From Octopus vulgaris (taxonomy: Eukaryota): a stretch of DNA of 64,000 nucleotides. The stretch is taken from the NCBI GenBank assembly GCA_951406725.2, contig OX597827.1:78926001-78990000 (forward strand), read 5' to 3'. A model generated the notes under the pieces. It was given only the letters and a program-made list of their open reading frames with translations. It did no database searches and was not told the DNA's origin. Both the position numbers and the translations under genes were made by a program. This document shows, one piece after another, positions 9,575 through 64,000 of this stretch (position 1 is the first letter of the stretch; every line of letters starts with the position of its first letter).

Positions 9575-10307
9575 AGTACCTTGGATTGTAGGGCGACCTG
9601 CTGTGCTTGAGGAGACCTATTGAGTCAAGTACATCAACATCAATATCAAAATCTAATCAAATAGAAATTGTAGTTGTGAGCCCCGTGCCGGTAGCATATA
9701 AAAAGCACCATCTGAACGTGGCTGATGCCAGTGTCGCTTTGACTGGCTTCTGTGCTGGTGGCACGTAAAAAGCACCATCCGATCGTGGTTGATGCCAGCT
9801 CCTCTAGCCCTTGTGCCAGTGGCACGTAAAAAGCACCATCCGATCATGGTTGATGCCAGCTCCTCTGGCCCCTGTGCCGGTGGCACGTAAAAAGCACCAT
9901 CCGATCATGGTTGATGCCAGCTCCTCTGGCCCCTGTGCTGGTGGCACGTAAAAAGCACCATCCGATCATGGTTGATGCCAGCTCCTCTAGGCCCTGTGCC
10001 AGTGGCACGTAAAAAGCACCATCCGATCATGGTTGATGCCAGCTCCTCTGGCCCCTGTGCCGGTGGCACGTAAAAAGCACCATCCAATTGTGGTTGATGC
10101 CAGCTTTGCCTAGCACCTTTGCCGGTGGTACGTAAAAAGCACTTACTACACTCTTGAACTGGTTGGCATTAGGAAGGGCATCCAGCTGTAGAAACACTGC
10201 CAGATCAAATTGGACCCCGGAGCAGCCTCCTGGCTTCCCAGACCCCAGTCGAACCGGCTAACCCATGCCAGCATGGAAAACGGATGTTAAACAATGATGA
10301 TGATGAT
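9575..10307 (+). mobile_element. RTE-related 3'-end element with internal 61-bp tandem array and (GAT)n tail
   Basis: About 7 copies of GTGCCNGTGGCACGTAAAAAGCACCATCCGATCATGGTTGATGCCAGC..., then the conserved TTAGGAAGGGCATCCAGCTGTAGAAAC...CCCATGCCAGCATGGAAA..GATGATG end. Confidence 0.8.
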
Positions 10308-35384: not shown

Positions 35385-35782
35385 ACAATTGAGGGTAAAA
35401 CTAATTAGTTATTAATCAATTTCACCAAAGTAGTGTTCAGTATGTAAAAGGACCATTTAAGGCGAATTCAAAATATTACATTATATAATTAGGGCTTAGT
35501 AAAATAAATTACTTTGCCACATACTGAGCTTTCTAGAAATAGCAGCCAAAAAGTTTTTTAGCCATTTCCACTACTTTAAGAAAATTTCTCTCAGATAATG
35601 TTTACTCAAAAATAACTCACGAAGATATGGAGGTAAAAACAGTAAAATATCACAAGTACAAAGATCATTTGAGAACGTCAACGATATATATATATATACA
35701 TACACATATATATATACATATATATATATGTATATATATATAAACATAAATATATATGTGTGTATATATATATTATTATATA

Positions 35783-36256
35783 AGCACCATCCGTTCGCGT
35801 CCGTTGCCAGCCTCGGCTGGCCCCCGTGCCGGTGACACGTAAAAGCACCGTCCGTTCGTGGCCGGTTGCCAGCTCTGTCTGGCTCCATGTCGGTGGCACG
35901 TAAAAGCACCATCCGTTCGTGTCCGTTGCCAGCATCGCCTGGCCCCGTGCCGGTGACACGTAAAAGCACCATCCGTTCGTGTCCGTTGCCAGCTCTGTCT
36001 GGCCCCGTGTCGGTGACACGTAAAAGCACCATCCGTTCGTGGCCGTTCGCCAGCTCTGTCTGGCACCTGTGCAGGTGGCACGTAAAAACACCCACTACAC
36101 TCGCGGAGTGGTTGGCGTTAGGAAGGGCATCCAGCCGTAGAAACACTGCCAGATCTGACTGGGCCTGACGAAGCCTTCCAGCTTCACAGACCCCAGTTGA
36201 CCCGTCCAACCCATGCTAGCATGGAAAGCGGACGCTAAACGATGATGATGATGATG
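35783..36256 (+). mobile_element. RTE-related 3'-end element with ~60-bp tandem array and (GAT)n tail
   Basis: About 5 units CCGTTCGTGTCCGTTGCCAGC...GTGCCGGTGACACGTAAAAGCACC. CpGs are retained, suggesting a young copy. Confidence 0.85.
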
Positions 36257-37311: not shown

Positions 37312-37655
37312 ATCATCATCATCATCATCATCGTTTAACGTCCGTTCTCCATGCTAGCATGGGTTGGACGGTTCGACCGGGGATCTGGGAAGTCAGAAGG
37401 CTGCACCAGGCTCCAGTCTTATCTGGCAATGTTTCTACAGCTGGATGCCCTTCCTAACACCAACCACTCCGTGAGTGTAGTGGGTGCTTTTTACATGCCA
37501 CCTGCACAGGTGCCAGGCTAGGCTGGCAACGGCCACGGTCAGATTGGTGCATTTTACGTGCCACCGGCACAGAAGCCAGTCGAGGCGGCACTGGCATCGG
37601 CCACGATTCGGATGGTGCTTTTTACATGCCACCGGCACGGAAGCCAGTCGAGGCA
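37312..37655 (-). mobile_element. RTE-related 3'-end element
   Basis: (CAT)n followed by the reverse complement of the conserved end. Confidence 0.8.
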
Positions 37656-40656: not shown

Positions 40657-42479
40657 TATATATATGTGTGTGTGTGCGTGTGCATGCGCACTTTTGTGTG
40701 TGATGGGCTGTCTACCAAATCCACTCACAAGACTTTGGTAAGCTCAGGGCTATAGTTAAAGACACTTGCCCAAGGTGTACTTGGAACCATATGGTTGGGT
40801 GGGGAGCAGTGTGATTGTTGATCAGTGGGAACGATGCAGAAGGGTAGGACACTGAATAAATGTCACCATCTTTGAATGTTTTCAGTAAAGACATGCAATT
40901 CTTTATTCATGTTCTGGGCCTTTCTGTATTTGATGAGTTGTGGAAAGATAGAAAAAAGAAGCAAGTGTCTTGCTTTGCTGAGTTCCTTCCAAGAAGTGTA
41001 TCAGAAGCATTGACCTCAGTTGAAAGAGAACACACAGAGATCTGAAGATGGTGTGGTAGAGTTGATTAAATTGCCTTCAGTGTGGTGTCTGTTTAGTAAG
41101 TCCATGTGTGGAAATGCAAGACCTCACCTGACTCAGTAGGAAAAGAAATTTGAAACACTTTGGCATTCATCATCATTTAACATCAGTCTTCCATGCTGGC
41201 ATGGGTTGGATGGTTTGACAGGGGCTGGCAAGACTGGAGAGCTGCACCAGGCTTCACTGTCTGCTTTGGTATGGTTTCCATGGCTGGATGCCCTTCTCAA
41301 TGCCAACCACTTCACAGAGTGTAATTGGGTGCTTTTAATATAGCATCAGCTCTGGAGCTTTTTACATGGCACCAACACCAGTGGGGTTGTTAAGTAACTT
41401 GCAAGGCAAATCCCTCTCAGCTGGGAGATGCCTGAACAAAAGAATCATACAATCTGATTTCTTTCTGATGGAGAAACCTCTTGTTACCAACAAAGGTAGA
41501 AACTCTCTCAACTTTGCCCAGCCTGTTCTTATACTAGCAACTATGCTTTCAGAGCATCCTCCACCACTGCTAACTCAATCACCTAGTTAATGGAAGCTAC
41601 CTATTACTTTTAAGGGTCCCCACTGCAAACATTTGAAGAAGTCTATTTCCTGTATGTTCTTAGTGTCTATTGTACCTGCACACCTGCCACACACAAAGGC
41701 TACTTTCTCTATTAACCTTCCTGTGATACTGCTGCCCCTCTTACGTTTTCATAGCTTACATTGGATACACAGAATGGAATTTCTATCTTCACTTTCTCCA
41801 TGTTCACTTTGCATAATATGCAAATAGATCAGTTAAATCTTTTAAGCATGTGAAATGAATTCTTTTCCATATCGATTATTATTGTAGAAACTTTGGCAGA
41901 ACAGGAAACATATTTAAAATGTGCTGAACTAGTTTTTTACCTGCAACCATTACATTCTCTATGAGGGTATATATGTCTTTTCATTATGAAATCATGATGG
42001 AAGTTAACAACATCATTAGGACAACAAAAATAAAGTCTTTTAAACTTAACACAGTTAACCGCTGTTTAATTTAATGGTGTGCCCTCTTTCGGATGATGGC
42101 ACTGAACTTAAAAACTCAGAGATACCATCCGTATGAAAGACAACAGTTCAAACATATTTAGCGCAATTACTAACAACAATTTAATTGTAAATACTAACGC
42201 AGTTAGGAAATGACAACATTAAATACTGACTAATATTATTTTTATTATTCTGGAAAGAATGAAAGAAATAAAATAACGTTAGTCATTGATCTAATCTCTT
42301 TCTCTCATCATGTAATTATTTCTAACTAGATTTTTGATATTAAACGCATTGAAATGAGCGAGTCCAAACTGCTAGATAAGTATTTCTAATATAGGCACAA
42401 GGGAGTGGGGAATTAGTCAATACTCTCACTACCCGCAGGTACTTTATTTATCGACCCCGAAAGGACGAAAAACATAATT

Positions 42480-43560
42480 AATCTAGGCGGAAACGCCTTT
42501 TGAAAAAATGGACTAATTTTACAGGAGAAACTTTACACCGGTTTCCGACTGACGTCGGGATTTCAATGATGGCTGTTCGTTTCTGTAAATATTCTTCACA
42601 TCCTTGTTTGTTTTTGTTATCTTTGACGACCGATCGTTTTCTTAATTTCTGAATAGAATGACATTTTTACACAGCATATTGCCTTCAACACTTTGATCAA
42701 ACTGATCTCATTTTTGGTATGTCTATTTATTATTTATATTATTAAATGATTTATTATTAATTATTATAAGACGAGGAAAGCGGCGTAATTACAATTAGGA
42801 GCCTTAATTAGGAGAATTTTAAAATCTAATTTGGTTTTCCTGAATTCCCGAAACGGAAAAGTGAATCCTTCAATGTAGGTAAAACGTGTACCCTATACGT
42901 ATATACAGCCCTGTTACACACACATATATATATATAAATAAATAAATAAAATACACACACACACGATATATAATAGGTAAGAATTGTATTTTTGTAAATT
43001 GTATTTTCTCCAAATGACGTTTTATGTGTTGTCGATAAAAAAAGAGAAGCAGGGATAGAAAAAAAAAGTTTGATTTTAGCACAACCGGAATCTCTTCTTT
43101 TCAGTGTTTCAGTAATTCCAAGTTAGATTTTTTATATTCCCCGTTTTTGTCGGTTCCAGTTTTTTAAAATTTTCTGGGTTTTTGTTATTTAAACATTGTT
43201 TCCGACAGCAATTGTTAAACTCTGAGGAAATATATAAAATCTACTTGCTCTTAATAAACCATATTGATATTAAACAATTCTCTCCAACTTCTGACGAAAA
43301 TCTTAAAATATATTCAAGCAAAATCGAAAGCCAACAGAAGAGATCGAACTCGTTCCGCCAAATAAGTGGACGAGGATGTTTCTTTATTCTTCTCTTTGTA
43401 TTTATGTTTATCAAAGAATTGGAAAAGAAAAGAAAACAAACGAGCAGGATATATGCCGGAGTATTAATAAAATTCTAAACCGGTTAAAAGTCGGACAAAT
43501 TAGAATTGTTGCGAGAAAGTAAAAGTACAACTTTTTTCAGAGAAGAACCATTCTTCGGGG
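42480..43560. promoter_or_regulatory. CpG-enriched, repeat-poor putative promoter / first-exon region
   Basis: Local CpG excess, TGACGTC CRE-like site near 42550, CCGG/CGGAA ETS-like cores and a candidate donor TTG|GTATGT at 42716/42717. It lies upstream of the FEM-1-like exon, which has an acceptor just before its ATG. Confidence 0.5.
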
Positions 43561-44494
43561 GTTCAAGGCTTTATTAAGAAGTCGTCTTCTTCACAGACCA
43601 ATTTATTTTACTTTTGATCTTGTTTGTATTCACTTTAGTTTCCTCTCATCATATAATTTCCGTTTGTTATCCAGCAAAAATACTTCTGTTAAAGTGCGTA
43701 ATGATGATTGTATAGTTACTAATTTGGGTAACTGTAATTAAAGATGTTTTGTTAAGCAAAAAGTTATTGAAAACTTCTTTATGATATCAAGTCCAACAGG
43801 AAACGGTGTTACCTAGGGCTAAATAACAGTAGTATTCTTCCCTTTCATGGGACTGTCACATTAAGTTGACAACATGCTATCACTTTATCGTGCTGCTACG
43901 GCATAAATCTCTCTGAGAGATTTAGAAATATATTATTTCTATTTATGAGAATTCAGTAAGACCATCTCTAGAATATTGATGGCATAACTACACTTTAGGT
44001 CACCATCCAACTTTCTTTCCTCCGTATTTACTTCATCTACACATGTGTTCGAAAATGTAGATTATTATGACGATAAATTTTATTTAATTTTTCTTTGTAA
44101 TCAGAAAGAAAGAAGTGCACAGCTTTTTAACTCCAGTCCTTCCTGACATAAAAGCTGTTCGGACACAATAAGGCGCACCCCAATTTCAACAGCGCATATT
44201 CAGGAAAAAAGTTTGTAGTGCATTAAAGTATATAATATTTAAAGCAATCTCGCTGTAAATTACAAACCATTGTACAGTTTCGGTAAATCCAAGTTAGATT
44301 TTTACATTCACCATTATTGTCGGGGCCAGTTTTAAACAAAATTTTCACTTTCCAGGTTTTTGTTATTTTAACGTGGTTTCCGCTATGAATTGTTAAACAC
44401 TATGCAGTACTGAATTTGTACGATGGTCTGTAATTTACTGCAAGATTGTACAACTTCTTTTGCAGTACAAATAATAATAATAATAATATCAGAA

Positions 44495-48829: not shown

Positions 48830-50461
48830 ATGTCACAACAACTTACAGGGGAGCAGATTATTTCCATATCAAACAAAGTGATGCGTTATGTGAGGAAATG
48901 TAACCTGGTTGGTGTGAAGTCCAAACTGGACCCTCTTAAAATGCCACATCGCAAACGTATTGCCAGCCGAAAGATCCAAGGATTCACTGCACTGTTTCTG
49001 GCCGTTTCCTACAACAACTTGGAACTTGTTCAGTATTTGTTACAGGAATGCAATGTTCCTGTCGATCAACCTGTGATATATAATGATGATGCTCAAGTGA
49101 CCCCTCTTTTAGTGGCTGCATCAGAACGCTGCAAGAATATGTTACAGATCCTTCTTGATTATGGAGCTGATATCAATGTCAAAGACCATTTGGGTAGCAC
49201 TGCTCTGAAAATGTCTGTTAAGGGTGGCAACGTGGACATTGTTAAGTTTCTTATTGAAAGAGGTTCTGATGTTAATTTTGCTGACCATAAAGGAGTGACT
49301 CCATTGATGGAATCGGTCTTTAACACGGAGTTAGTAGATCTCCTCTCTTCAAATGGTGCTAATTTATATGCAACTGATGCAAAGGGTGACACAGTCCTGC
49401 ATTTTGCAGCCTGTAAAGGTAGTTTAGAGGTGTTTAAGTTTCTCCTCCAGAAAGGCTTCAGTCCTTACACATGCAATGGCCTCGGTGAGAACTGTTTCCG
49501 GCTTGCTGCCACACACTGGCAATGGAGAATACTCATCTATTTACTGGTAACTTTTCCTTACCCACAACATTCTCCACAACAGTACTTTGACAGCACCACA
49601 ACACAGATATTTATTAAAGCTCTTGATGAAGCTGAACACAACATTGATGTCTTTGAATTTCCTGCACTAATGGTGACAGAAAAAGTATTAGGGGTTTGCT
49701 GTACGTCACTTGAGGCCTTAGGTTATGCAGCATGGCTGCAGTGCGACCTCGGCAATGTTTCACTAGCATGGGACATATATTGCCATTTACTTCGAGCCTG
49801 TCAAAGAATGAGGTGTGTAACGGGCCCTGATATTGTTACACTTGAGTTGGAGGTGTTTTGGAAAATATACAGTAAAGATCAACATTATTCGATGCCATTC
49901 AGGGAGGTCATAAATCTTGTGCGGCAGATTGCTAGTGATATCGTCATCAACTGGGAATCCCTCCAAAACAGCAACTGTGAAGAAAGATCTTTGAAAAGTT
50001 CTTACAAGGTGAATGCATGGGAAACGTTGTTACTGTTTGTGGTGAACTTGCTCAAAATTCTCATTCATTACCAACACAAATGGGATTCGGTAAGCTTTCA
50101 GAGGTTCTCCTGTTCTGTTCTTGATCGATACACCAAGGTTTTGTCTCAGACAGAACAGTCACATGCTGAACAGGAAGGCATCACGGATGGAAGTAAACCT
50201 GCAATCTCTTTAAGGCTTCATGGAAAATGGCAGCCGACAGACATTATTCTCCAAGCGTGTCATGAAACACAAAACCAGTTTCTGGGAAAATTTCTCAAAG
50301 AATCACCGTACATTGTCTTTGATGCTGCTAAACTTGTTCCTGTAAAAGAACCTCTTTCCCTGCAGTGTCTCACTGCCAGAGTTTTAAACCAAGCAAACAT
50401 TGAGTACCACAAATACTTACCTGGACGCTTGACCGACTTTGTCCTCCATCACCTCTCATGA
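48830..50461 (+). CDS. FEM-1-like ankyrin-repeat Cullin-RING ligase substrate receptor (543 aa, single coding exon)
   Basis: Acceptor TTTTTTCAG at 48824, then ATG at 48830. N-terminal ankyrin repeats (TALFLAV, TPLLVAA, TALKMS, TPLMES, TVLHFAA). C-terminal PLSLQCLTARVL...Y...LPGRLTDFVLHH resembles the FEM-1 BC/VHL-box terminus. Confidence 0.85.
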   Translation: MSQQLTGEQIISISNKVMRYVRKCNLVGVKSKLDPLKMPHRKRIASRKIQGFTALFLAVSYNNLELVQYLLQECNVPVDQPVIYNDDAQVTPLLVAASERCKNMLQILLDYGADINVKDHLGSTALKMSVKGGNVDIVKFLIERGSDVNFADHKGVTPLMESVFNTELVDLLSSNGANLYATDAKGDTVLHFAACKGSLEVFKFLLQKGFSPYTCNGLGENCFRLAATHWQWRILIYLLVTFPYPQHSPQQYFDSTTTQIFIKALDEAEHNIDVFEFPALMVTEKVLGVCCTSLEALGYAAWLQCDLGNVSLAWDIYCHLLRACQRMRCVTGPDIVTLELEVFWKIYSKDQHYSMPFREVINLVRQIASDIVINWESLQNSNCEERSLKSSYKVNAWETLLLFVVNLLKILIHYQHKWDSVSFQRFSCSVLDRYTKVLSQTEQSHAEQEGITDGSKPAISLRLHGKWQPTDIILQACHETQNQFLGKFLKESPYIVFDAAKLVPVKEPLSLQCLTARVLNQANIEYHKYLPGRLTDFVLHHLS

Positions 50462-53914: not shown

Positions 53915-55106
53915 TTTGTGGTTACGAAGTTTGCTTTGCATCTGTGTGGTGTTTGGTTCAACCCCTCTGCACGGCACCTCATACAATTATCTTCCTACCA
54001 TAGAACTGGATTGGGCAAAGTTTTGTGAATGAAATTAATTGATGGAAATAATGTGGCATCCCATTGGAGAGACCATTCCTGTTATTCGGTGATAAATTTA
54101 ATCTGTTGCCTGGTTTAACCCCATTCACTGGCCCTAGGGTACCTTTAGTGTAGCCCACTATATTACAGGAATTCAGGGCAGGTCTATAATTTGAGGATAA
54201 ATATCCTCCCATCTGTCCCAGAGGTCAAGTCTTTTGCCTGCACATAATAAAATAAGTTTCATTATTTTTGTACATTTTTTTTTTGATTGTGACATCAGAA
54301 TCCCAGAAAGTTGGTCAAATTGTGATTACTGAGAGATTGGTTTCACTGTCTCATCTCACCCCTTACAAGTATAGTTGGCCTCCTCCGAGGAAGTTTTTTC
54401 TGGCTGCTTACTATAAAAGTGCCAGTGCTGTCCAACACAGGTTTTAACCCCTTCTGGATATGGTCAAACTGGACGAGTTGTAGGAAGTAATGTGATGATT
54501 GCTTTTACTCCACTCTGTTGTATTGTTTGGACACAGAGATTATAGCAACGAGTAGCTACTGGCTCCTGGAGCAAACTCATACTGGATTTGGTGGGAGAAG
54601 TTTGGTCAGTTGCAGTTCTGAACACTCTCTTTCATATTCTTCCCCGCTTCGCAGTGCCAGTGCTGTGTGGCAAAAAACAGGAAGTTTGGCAGAGGTAATC
54701 AGCTTACACATCCCATAAGAAACCCTTTTATGGTGCAGCTGAGCCCCTGCCCAGCTTTAGATTATTCTCTTGAATCTAAGCATAATTATGGGAATTTGAC
54801 TGTCATCAAAACCGTGTTTTCATTGCCCACCTAACAACAGTCGTTAGTGTTTGTTCTTGTTTAGTGTCCTATTTGTGGTTACGAAGTTTGCTTTGCATCT
54901 GTGTGGTGTTTGGTTCAATCCCTCTGCACGGCACCTCATACAAGTATCTTCCTACCATAGAACTGGATTGGGCAAAGTTTTGTGAATGAAATTAATTGAT
55001 GGAAATCATGTGGCATCCCATTGGAGAGACCATTCCTGTTATTCGGTGATAAATTTAATCTGTTGCCTGGTTTAACCCCATTCACTGGCCCTAGGGTACC
55101 TTTAGT
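53915..55106 (+). repeat. 235-bp near-identical direct repeats (53915-54149 and 54872-55106)
   Basis: Directly visible. Only a few substitutions separate the copies. Confidence 0.9.
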
Positions 55107-60743: not shown

Positions 60744-61369
60744 AATTTATTTATACTTTATATTTATATCTATACATATTTACATATATTTTTATATATA
60801 TTTATATATTTATATATATCTTTAATACAATAAGTATTTTCACATGGGTATATCTTTATGATGAGTTTGGATACTAATTTCCTTATATTAATAATAATAG
60901 TATATTATTAAAAAATATATGTATATATATATATAGGTGCCAATTTGGGGGTGGGGTGATCTGCAAATTAAAGGGCAATAACTTTAGGTTACTTTTTAGT
61001 TTAGTTTGTGCTAGTGCTATTTCGTGTGTGATCTACGTGAGCAAATTTGCTTTCGTGCGTGATCCATGATCTTATTTTAATTATTATATTGTTTAGTCTT
61101 AGTTTCTTTATTTTCTAAGACAGAAATGAAACATGGTTTTATTATTATTAACATAATTTTATTGATGAATTGAGTAAATATCTACTACAAATGTGAGGAA
61201 AAGGTCTTCAGCACACTTTCTCAACTGTAGCCAACAGAAATAATCAAGGTGAGATTGGAAGGGCTGTGGATTGAAAAAAAAAAGGGGCAGGCTAACGCTA
61301 TTTCTATGTAGAAAAAAGAAATCACGAAACACTTGTAGCAGAGCTACATGTTACATAGTAATATGTAAA

Positions 61370-61953
61370 TCGAAATTAAAACCAAAATCAAAGTCAAATT
61401 CGATGACGGGCATGAGCACCATCCGAGCCCCATGCTAGTAGGGTGCTAAGAGCACCATCCGAGCGTGATCATTGACAGAGCGACTAACCGGCTTCCATGC
61501 CAGTGGCATATAAAAGGCACCATTCGAGTATGATCGTTACTAGCTTCGCCTTACTGACACTTGTGCCTCATGCTAGTAAGGTGCTAAGAGCACCATCCAA
61601 GTGTGATCGTTGCCAGAGTGGCTAACTGGCTTCCATGCCGGTGGCATGTAAGAGGCACCATTCGAGTGTGATCGTTACCAGCATCGCCTTACTGGCACCT
61701 GTGCCGGTGGCATGTGTAAAAAGATTCGAGCGAGGTCGTTACCAGTACTGGCTGACTGGCCCCCGTGCTGGTGGCACGTAAAAGCACCCACTACACTCTC
61801 AGAGTGGTTGGTGTTAGGAAGGGCATCCAGCTGTAGAAACTCTGCCAGATCAAGACCGGAGCCTGGTGCAGCCATCTGGTTCGCCAGCCCTCAGTCAAAC
61901 CGTCCAACCCATGCTAGCATGGAAAGCAGACATTAAACGATGATGATGATGAT
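61370..61953 (+). mobile_element. RTE 3' UTR element with (GAT)n tail
   Basis: Homologous to 7895-8450. Confidence 0.85.
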
Positions 61954-62039
61954 CTGCACAGCAGACGAACATATCAATGAGGCATCTAGCTTTGCTTTAA
62001 TACACTAGCCTCGTTTTGATACAGTAACCTTATTTTGAG

Positions 62040-62670
62040 ACATTAGTCTTGCTCTGAGCTACATGGTAGAAGTTCTCTGTTCCTGTCAGCTTTTGCTCAA
62101 AGACACATGTCTTCTCTGTAGCTCTCCCCACAATCTCCCACGTGCGACTTACATGTCTATTCACCTCGACACAAGATATATGGTTCATAAACGAAGATAT
62201 TTTATCTCACACATTCTCAAAATCACTGTTCTCATTACACACCTGCATACATACTATAATACAAATATTATGTCACTTCTTTCAGTGCAAAATCTCTAAA
62301 TCATCAGTTCCAAAAGACATTGATTCTTGGACCCATGTGTTTCTACGAAGTGATGCTGTGAAAACCCCTCTCACACCTCCATATACAGGACCCTATTGTG
62401 TCCTGTCGCACACAAACTATATACCATTGACATTAATGCTAAAAGAGAAACTGTCTTGATAGACAGGCTTAAGCAGGCATACACAGACTGATACAATACT
62501 ACTTCATACATCTCCCACATTCACAGTTCAATATAAAACAGATGCTCCTCCACTGCAACCACCCCCAACACTACCACACACACCGACCCCTCCTCCATAC
62601 GTCACTGAAACTTGTAGTGGTCGTCAGGTACACTGGCCCACCAAGCTGTCTAAAACTATATACATCTGAA
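62040..62670 (+). mobile_element. Degenerate Ty3/gypsy integrase C-terminus
   Basis: THVFLRSDAVKTPLTPPYTGPYCVL (GPY/F motif), then in shifted frames YTIDIN...IDRLK.AY and T.SGRQVHWP. Confidence 0.8.
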
Positions 62671-62695
62671 CTATAATGATCTATTTGTGAACGTT

Positions 62696-63321
62696 AATAC
62701 GTTTCGTCTTCATCGTTTCCGATTCGTTTTTTTTTAAGAACTTTCATTTCGTATTTTATTTCCTAGTTGGGTGGTTGCGATGGTAAAACGTCTGGTTATT
62801 AAAACACAAGAGAACTTCTTAAACAAAGTAAATACGTTTCGTCTTCATCGTTTCCGATTCGTCTTTTATATATTTTATAATTTTGTATTTTATTTCCTAG
62901 TTGGGTGGTTGCGATGGTAAAACGTCTGGTTATTAAAACACAAGAGAACTTCTTAAACAAAGTAAATACGTTTCGTCTTCATCGTTTCCGATTCGTCTTT
63001 TATATATTTTATAATTTTGTATTTCATTTCCTTGTTCGCAGCAATGAGCGATGGTAAAACGTCTGGTTATTAAAACACAAGAGAACTTCTTAAACAAAGT
63101 AAATACGTTTCGTCTTCATCGTTTCCGATTCGTCTTTTATATATTTTATAATTTTGTATTTTATTTCCTAGTTGGGTGGTTGCGATGGTAAAACGTCTGG
63201 TTATTAAAACACAAGAGAACTTCTTAAACAAAGTAAATACGTTTCGTCTTCATCGTTTCCGATTCGTCTTTTATATATTTTATAATTTTGTATTTCATTT
63301 CCTTGTTCGCAGCAATGAGCG
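62696..63321 (+). repeat. Tandem array of ~134-137-bp units (4.6 copies, variants A,A,B,A,B)
   Basis: AATACGTTTCGTCTTCATCG recurs at 62696, 62831, 62965, 63102 and 63236. Confidence 0.95.
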
Positions 63322-64000
63322 AGAGAAAGAGAAATCGTGAATACCAGAATAAACTTAATAAAGTAAGAAAAATATATTTGGAAGATGAAAAGAAGCAAGA
63401 AGATTTGGAAGAAGAAGCAGAGAGACATTTGCAAGAAAGATCTGAAGACTTTTTTTAATGCTGTTACCTATCTACCTGTTGATTATTATGCGAAAAGCTT
63501 TCCCGGAAAGGGAAAACGAAGCATCGCAGAAACTATTCAAACCGTCGTGGACTTTTTCGATGAAGAAAAAGCTAACGAGAAAGCCAGAAAAAATGTTGAA
63601 TCTGCTATGGACAAGTATATTGAAATGTATTTTCCTGGTGAGTGTAAAGGTTACAACGAACACCTGAACCGCCTTATTGAGAAAGCAGAAAGAATCGAAG
63701 AAATGAACTTCCCTATTTTAAGAGATATTTTGAAGCATATAAGCGATGATGATTCGTGGAAATTAGTTGCCAAACATCTAGGATCGGATGCAGAGGAAAT
63801 TGATATTAAAGCTCAAGAAACCCCACTGGATAAAAAATGCTATGTTTTTATTAACCTGGTGCCCCATAAAATGCACCTAAAGGATCTGTGCCCTAAGCTG
63901 TTATTTGCTCTCAGTGAATATTGTGAGTGTGAAGTTAATACCGAGAAAGTGGAGGCAGTTTTGGACAAGGCCATCGCTGACCAACAAGCTGAATATATTG
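63315..64000 (+). CDS. Unannotated ORF (partial, runs off window) with death-domain-like segment and one frameshift in a T7 run
   Basis: ATG at 63315 gives 47 aa to TAA at 63456-63458. Removing one T from 63450-63456 joins it to a frame open to 64000 (...ILKHISDDDSWKLVAKHLGSDAEEIDIKAQETPLDKKCYVFINL...LLFALSEY...). Confidence 0.65.

Follow-up and report, generated by a model that had tools for sequence, protein, structure and literature searches.

The locus and its surroundings

The window, by which we mean the whole 64,000-nucleotide stretch of Octopus vulgaris DNA that was analyzed, is animal DNA in which both microsatellites and interspersed repeats are abundant. Toward its right end, several features follow one another on the forward strand: an interspersed repeat (61427 to 61953) with many copies in the window as seen by self-BLAST, which we take to be SINE-like; a broken remnant (62070 to 62670) that looks like the C-terminal part of an integrase from an LTR retrotransposon; a tandem array (62696 to 63322); and a protein-coding gene that begins with the ATG at 63315, runs to the last position of the window (64000), and ends a few bases beyond it. 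The array is real and consists of four to five copies of a 134-base tandem unit placed directly before an uncharacterized octopus gene.

Elsewhere in the window, a long single-exon coding stretch (48830 to 50461) encodes four ankyrin repeats (Pfam E values of about 1e-30); just before it, at about 48825, are a pyrimidine tract and an AG, and its C-terminus may be a SOCS/VHL-box end, which it resembles. The segment from 42001 to 44000 is AT-rich (32% G+C), has a CpG observed/expected ratio of 1.09 and no long ORF, and is possibly the start region of a neighboring gene. By eye, a segment of about 235 nt is seen to recur in direct orientation, at approximately 53915 to 54150 and 54875 to 55105, the two copies being about 960 nt apart. 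An interspersed family with internal tandem units of 60 to 68 nt and many copies in the window is represented at 9679 to 10142, 35782 to 36092, 37483 to 37654, and 61427 to 61715.

Structure of the tandem array

A sequence-only reading of this DNA had described the array as a series of tandem units, and both TRF and self-comparison place units of 134 to 137 nt at 62696 to 63322. TRF reports a period of 134 nt with 4.5 copies (93%) and a period of 271 nt with 2.3 copies. The units start at 62696, 62831, 62965, 63102, and 63236; the first four are 135, 134, 137, and 134 nt long, and the last is partial. Their ends come in two variants, A and B; as assembled, an A-like unit 1 is followed by A, B, A, and B. 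The first 32 nt of unit 1 (62696 to 62830) are the same as in the other units; its middle is diverged, and the upstream donor-like motif of the other units is absent from it: that position reads GTTAAT.

The 271-nt period reflects an exact duplication spanning 62777 to 63322: positions 62777 to 63051 are identical to 63048 to 63322 over 275 letters, with GCGA at either border. In the assembly, this duplication gives the internal B copy, which carries the first bases of the downstream ORF (ATGAGCGA); both this copy and the GCGA microhomology, pointed out in the sequence-only reading, are present in the window.

Copy number and assembly of the array

Four of the 24 listed sequencing runs (X1, X3, X9, and X17) were compared as assembled contigs over positions 63140 to 64000, that is, about one unit plus the ORF. 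X1 and X9 are DNA runs, and X3 and X17, two of 11 presumed-RNA runs, are RNA by guess. The array was found under two organism labels, with the unit differing at no more than one letter. X1 may be the source of the window assembly itself.

In each of the four runs, the unit appears as a single contig of 164 nt, of which 156 letters are aligned. This is the length expected of a 134-nt cycle with 30 nt of overlap, suggesting that the unit closes on itself. In the DNA run X1, the depth of the unit is 153.4 vs 50.6 for the main ORF contig, a ratio of 3.03, and in X9 it is 324.1 vs 93.9, a ratio of 3.45 that spans 2.8 to 5.1 when other reference contigs are used; with two DNA runs only, ratios of 3.0 and 3.45 are indistinguishable. 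The predicted ratio is 3.46 for the array as assembled and 1.84 if the 271-nt period is removed. As the observed ratios are close to the former and away from the latter, the array is not an assembly artifact.

The idea that assembly produced the whole array, or else just the exact 271-nt period and the internal B copy that goes with it, is nevertheless not without points on its side. An exact duplication of 275 letters is involved, and at 63450 the window is demonstrably wrong by one letter (see below). In addition, the assembly graph of the array as it stands in the window would break within the unit and at 63322, but none of these predicted breaks is seen in the contigs of any of the four runs, and even the edge leading into the array, which has to exist, is absent from the contigs of both DNA runs. 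Assemblers of the SPAdes type drop minority edges at a fraction of the neighboring depth. The Logan contigs are simplified by SPAdes-like heuristics, according to their description (10.1101/2024.07.30.605881). Removal of minority edges by the assembler would explain the missing breaks. Given the depth ratios and the self-closing 134+30-nt contig in both DNA runs, we consider an assembly artifact very improbable.

A T-to-A difference at 63224 is present at full depth in the collapsed unit contig of X9 and absent in X17, which has the same organism label. This difference hints at recent turnover of copies.

Splice-site look-alikes and their use

The proposal of the sequence-only reading was that each unit is an intron plus a mini-exon, making up an amplified multi-intron 5' leader. 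The motifs behind this proposal are all present. Donor-like AAA|GTAAAT is found at 62828, 62962, and 63233, as described, and a fourth copy, at 63099, had been overlooked. The acceptor-like end of variant A, TTTTATTTCCTAG, is found at 62766, 62900, and 63171 and corresponds to a predicted intron of 73 nt; that of variant B, which ends in GTTCGCAG, is found at 63041 and 63312 and corresponds to one of 80 nt. The putative exon that follows A is 61 nt long, and the last AG lies 2 nt upstream of the ATG at 63315. Both variants keep a pyrimidine tract and an AG, using different letters: the AG of B is absent from A, which has another AG 7 nt earlier. Thus, the units carry the spliceosomal signature of a GT donor, a pyrimidine tract, and an AG acceptor. 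By a crude donor-acceptor filter, tuned so that the array's own motifs pass, a passing pair arose by chance in 18 of 5,000 whole-unit shuffles and in 146 of 5,000 two-block shuffles (0.4 to 3%); outside the array, the window contains one passing pair on the forward strand and three on the reverse strand. The splice look-alike of the array is therefore mildly unusual relative to chance.

In the contigs of the four runs over 63140 to 64000, no splice joints were listed. Instead, the 164-nt contig of X3 and X17 crosses acceptor A unspliced (32 aligned letters before it and 124 after it) and crosses the donor unspliced with 63 letters beyond it, and the ORF contigs of the same runs, whose first position is 63266, pass unspliced through acceptor B with 47 letters before it; all three site crossings have more than 31 letters on either side. 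The predicted mini-exon of the last unit (63172 to 63232, 61 nt) is thus joined to both of its unspliced flanks in the 164-nt contig of all four runs, and predicted intron B (63233 to 63312, 80 nt) is kept in the presumed-RNA contigs and is likely promoter-proximal or 5' UTR sequence. Judging from the way assembly graphs are simplified, had splicing been the dominant path, the ORF contig would have been interrupted or diverted at 63313, and the path that was kept appears to be the unspliced one. As the main form of the transcript, the multi-intron leader is not supported by this comparison, because both presumed-RNA runs cross all site types unspliced; the intron-cassette reading fails its first test. 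It is also of note that a donor nearer to consensus, AAA|GTAAGA at 63363, lies inside the coding sequence of the ORF and is bridged unspliced in contigs: such motifs need not function at this locus.

Depth adds a hint of its own. The ratio of unit to ORF depth is 0.07 to 0.24 in X3 and X17, far below the 3.0 to 3.5 of the DNA runs, and in this respect X3 and X17 are unlike genomic DNA; contig depth cannot rank the parts of one gene, and the ratio is to be taken as a hint only. Three spliced exon copies predict a unit depth of at least 17 in X3 and at least 29 in X17, where 4.6 and 10.1 were observed, depth being a weak measure; for a single spliced exon copy, the predicted bound in X17 is 9.8, below the observed 10.1.

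A weaker version of the proposal is that the units serve as real introns and mini-exons only in certain tissues or in a minor share of the transcripts, the array then being an amplified multi-exon 5' leader. On the one hand, GT...AG look-alikes of 73 or 80 nt recur in every full unit, variant A has retained an AG in spite of lacking that of B, and the pair is rare in shuffles. Moreover, because true array edges are missing from the contigs of the DNA runs, a minor spliced form could disappear from contigs in the same way, and the donors of a human F7 minisatellite are reported to be capable of function even though they are normally silent (PMC1557585). On the other hand, the two presumed-RNA runs contain no joint and read unspliced through each of the three site types and through the better donor at 63363, and unit 1 has no donor at all. 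On balance, we find minor splicing unlikely.

The downstream gene

In the window, the frame that opens at ATG 63315 stops after 47 codons, whereas the database protein P0005, which starts at this ATG, and its relative P0004 read through. The apparent stop is due to a T run that is one letter too long at 63450, an assembly error that is absent in all four runs. Consequently, the gene model in the window is wrong at its 5' end: the database form P0003 (206 aa) carries a false N-terminus from the error at 63450, and the protein is the 229-residue P0005. A long N-terminal helix and a C-terminal death fold are predicted for it.

Relatives of this protein are very few: three clusters among 5.8 billion proteins (5,638 candidates scored) and two matches among 1.84 billion representatives. 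P0004 is 66% identical to P0005, and P0006 from Argonauta hians, the sole named relative of the ORF, is 42% identical; the N-terminal segment is common to both. No longer relatives were found among 8,000 candidates scored, which is weak evidence.

The model of the full-length protein is poor (pLDDT 59), and that of the C-terminal part is much better (pLDDT 88, pTM 0.82). Death-fold domains account for 17 of the 18 top structural matches of the C-terminal part; the best has an rmsd of 2.9 over 87 aligned residues and a Z score of 7.7, which is below the caution line of 8. An Atlas model matches a molluscan death domain with a TM score of 0.73. Other searches are less clear: the Pfam Death model falls below its curated cut-off for P0001 (12.9 bits vs 22.6, E 0.12) and gives no row for any of the three full-length members, Foldseek has no matches at E of 0.001 or less, and searches of PDB sequences with the ORF protein yielded nothing better than E 0.08. 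From the structural models, the C-terminus of the ORF is predicted to be a six-helix death-fold bundle.

Differences between the runs and the window in the ORF cluster at residues 49 to 71 and at residue 118, and most alter amino acids: three of three codons in X3, seven of eight in X9, and seven of nine in X17. The ORF reads as a fast-evolving host gene and not as an envelope gene. With its predicted death fold and mostly amino acid-changing variation, this unnamed octopod protein is a candidate for an adaptor in immunity or cell death. No publications on LOC115219138 were found; among the titles and abstract openings listed on octopus death domains and on promoters or tandem repeats, none dealt with the locus.

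The retroelement remnant

The remnant at 62070 to 62670 occupies two frames with stops, and its frame ends about 26 nt upstream of unit 1. We tentatively assign it to an integrase C-terminus on the basis of three motifs of LTR-retrotransposon integrases, which lie at 62382 to 62630 on the same strand as the array. Four stop-free stretches of the remnant had no Pfam match. Of eight pol motifs searched for, three, all of them integrase C-terminal, were located near the array, and the reverse transcriptase, RNase H, and integrase-core motifs in this set are absent from the window. The region between the end of the remnant and the ORF (62660 to 63320) contains no purine run of 10 or more nucleotides.

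These integrase-like motifs so close to the array are what speaks for placing the array and ORF in a gypsy-type retroelement, with the ORF as an env-like accessory gene expressed from a subgenomic spliced RNA, an option that the sequence-only reading had raised by analogy with env. The remaining evidence points the other way: the pol piece is broken and lacks the purine run that was searched for, the ORF has only the three clusters of relatives described above, one of them the 42% identical Argonauta protein, a soluble death fold is predicted for its product, and no splice is seen in contigs. The subgenomic acceptor is not supported, the env model as a whole is largely refuted, and we would give it hardly any credence. 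The remnant is best read as a decayed neighbor of the array. A literature search for env of octopus gypsy or LTR retrotransposons returned no papers.

CpG content, upstream ORFs, and motifs

The CpG observed/expected ratio is 2.39 in the array vs 0.43 in the window. That of the unit (2.43) exceeds the value of each of 942 other stretches of 133 nt taken from the window; in plain numbers of CpG, 19 of the 942 have at least the 8 that the unit has. A high CpG observed/expected ratio fits an unmethylated gene start, and the CpG content of the array fits a promoter-like role.

The ATG within each unit opens a frame of appreciable length. The last of these upstream ORFs (63185 to 63340, forward strand, 51 codons) reads through the predicted intron and overlaps the main ATG out of frame; the others, starting at 62780, 62914, and 63051, have 46, 47, and 46 codons. 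A frame stayed open for 46 codons in 235 of 5,000 shuffles, and the upstream-ORF peptide had no Pfam match. Rfam had no matches over 60900 to 64000.

Such features would suit an array that works as a regulator: each unit would provide a weak start and an upstream ORF of 46 to 51 codons, transcripts starting upstream would be poorly translated, and the copy number would tune the output. In keeping with this, the presumed-RNA contigs span a whole unit, and the array is shared by two organism labels with a nearly invariant unit. A tandem minisatellite has also become a distal promoter of DDX3Y (PMC3039753). Against this stand the frequency of equally long frames in shuffles, the lack of a Pfam match for the peptide, and the unit ratios of the two DNA runs, which cannot be told apart given the spread in X9; furthermore, the low unit depth in the presumed-RNA runs could be due to precursor RNA or DNA carry-over. 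We find a regulatory array unlikely.

Core promoter motifs were looked for in unit B, where a TATA-like motif at 63272 and an initiator-like motif at 63295 are 25 nt apart. This pair was rejected as a TATA-initiator core promoter, for the spacing is short and the motif is common (13 of 255 initiator look-alikes). Likewise, derivation of the putative exon from the end of the retroelement was dismissed, as 828 of 2,000 shuffles scored equally.

The A and B ends can be aligned up to the ATG in each, and on this alignment A probably arose as a copy of the segment that precedes the ATG and has since diverged. A further resemblance, between the putative exon and the first 17 codons of the ORF, depends on how the two are placed. 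When the register is set by the two ATGs, six of 16 residues match; the shuffle p is 0.0012 (best segment), and two of 2,716 other ATGs equal this likeness. In free register, the likeness is weak, with 9, 18, and 132 of 400 shuffles reaching it for P0005, P0004, and P0006, respectively, and another diagonal scores equally for the exon vs the ORF start. As DNA, it is insignificant (288 of 2,000 and 470 of 2,000 shuffles). That the exon might be a decayed copy of the first 17 codons of the ORF is a lead only.

A proposed origin of the array

We favor the explanation that the array is a minisatellite of approximately 134-base units, formed by tandem amplification of the promoter or leader of the host gene, with splice look-alikes that are crossed unspliced in both presumed-RNA runs compared; we hold this to be probable, short of firmly established. 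The array is, in other words, likely an amplified promoter/leader segment of an ordinary kind and neither an intron cassette nor part of a retrovirus-like env gene.

The A and B ends would be diverged copies of the same 34 to 38 nt preceding an ATG. This old local homology, together with the GCGA microhomology, would allow unequal crossing-over or slippage to multiply the segment. Amplification, in one instance via GCGA, would have left the oldest sequence at the two extremes, in unit 1 and the final B, with identical copies between them. The majority of transcripts probably begin within or close to the last unit and run on to ATG 63315 without splicing, and the extra units would be spare promoter-proximal copies with little or at most a modest effect on expression. 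The pyrimidine tract and AG would then be incidental to a T-rich leader sequence.

A bolder combination of the ideas above makes the array a rheostat that acts through copy number on a death-fold gene, itself fast-evolving and restricted to octopods: each unit would contribute a start, an intron of optional use, and a long upstream ORF, and the number of units together with tissue-specific splicing would set the protein level. We consider such a rheostat quite unlikely; if it were true, the locus would offer, in compact form, a natural experiment on the way in which the number of repeats changes leader structure and translation. Under the favored amplified-leader explanation, tandem repeats at gene starts are of a known kind, and the array as found is of little consequence.

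Comparison with known systems

Several known systems resemble the octopus locus in part. The monomer promoters of mouse L1 retrotransposons are CpG-rich tandem monomers located directly before an ORF. The octopus array differs from them in that its ORF is a host gene with few relatives and not the ORF1 of a mobile element, and in that its promoter activity is putative. In errantivirus-type gypsy elements, env lies 3' of pol and is expressed by splicing. The octopus locus is similar to these elements in having an acceptor look-alike and an ORF 3' of pol-like sequence on the same strand; however, its pol piece is short and broken, no purine tract or splice was seen, and its ORF encodes a predicted death-fold protein with a relative in Argonauta.

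A counterpart among repeats at gene starts is MSY2 upstream of human DDX3Y, which likewise comprises a few near-identical tandem copies of about 100 nt before a protein-coding gene and is transcribed (PMC3039753). According to that source, MSY2 lies 885 nt before the ATG, the start was mapped by RACE, and a long leader is spliced downstream (PMC3039753), whereas the octopus array abuts its ATG and no splicing was seen. The minisatellite in intron 7 of F7 is similar in another respect: the repeat multiplies a splice consensus, and the extra copies are normally unused (PMC1557585). Its 37-bp unit, as described there, is associated with one authentic donor (PMC1557585), while the 134-nt octopus unit carries both donor and acceptor look-alikes.

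Finally, the protein encoded downstream of the array can be set beside the death-fold adaptors. It is unlike them in sequence, with identities of 9 to 17% and a Pfam score below the cut-off, and its N-terminal half belongs to no recognized family; in predicted structure, however, residues from about 122 to 226 resemble the death domains of RAIDD, FADD, and TNFR1, as this region is modeled as a helical bundle and death domains are the best matches to it.
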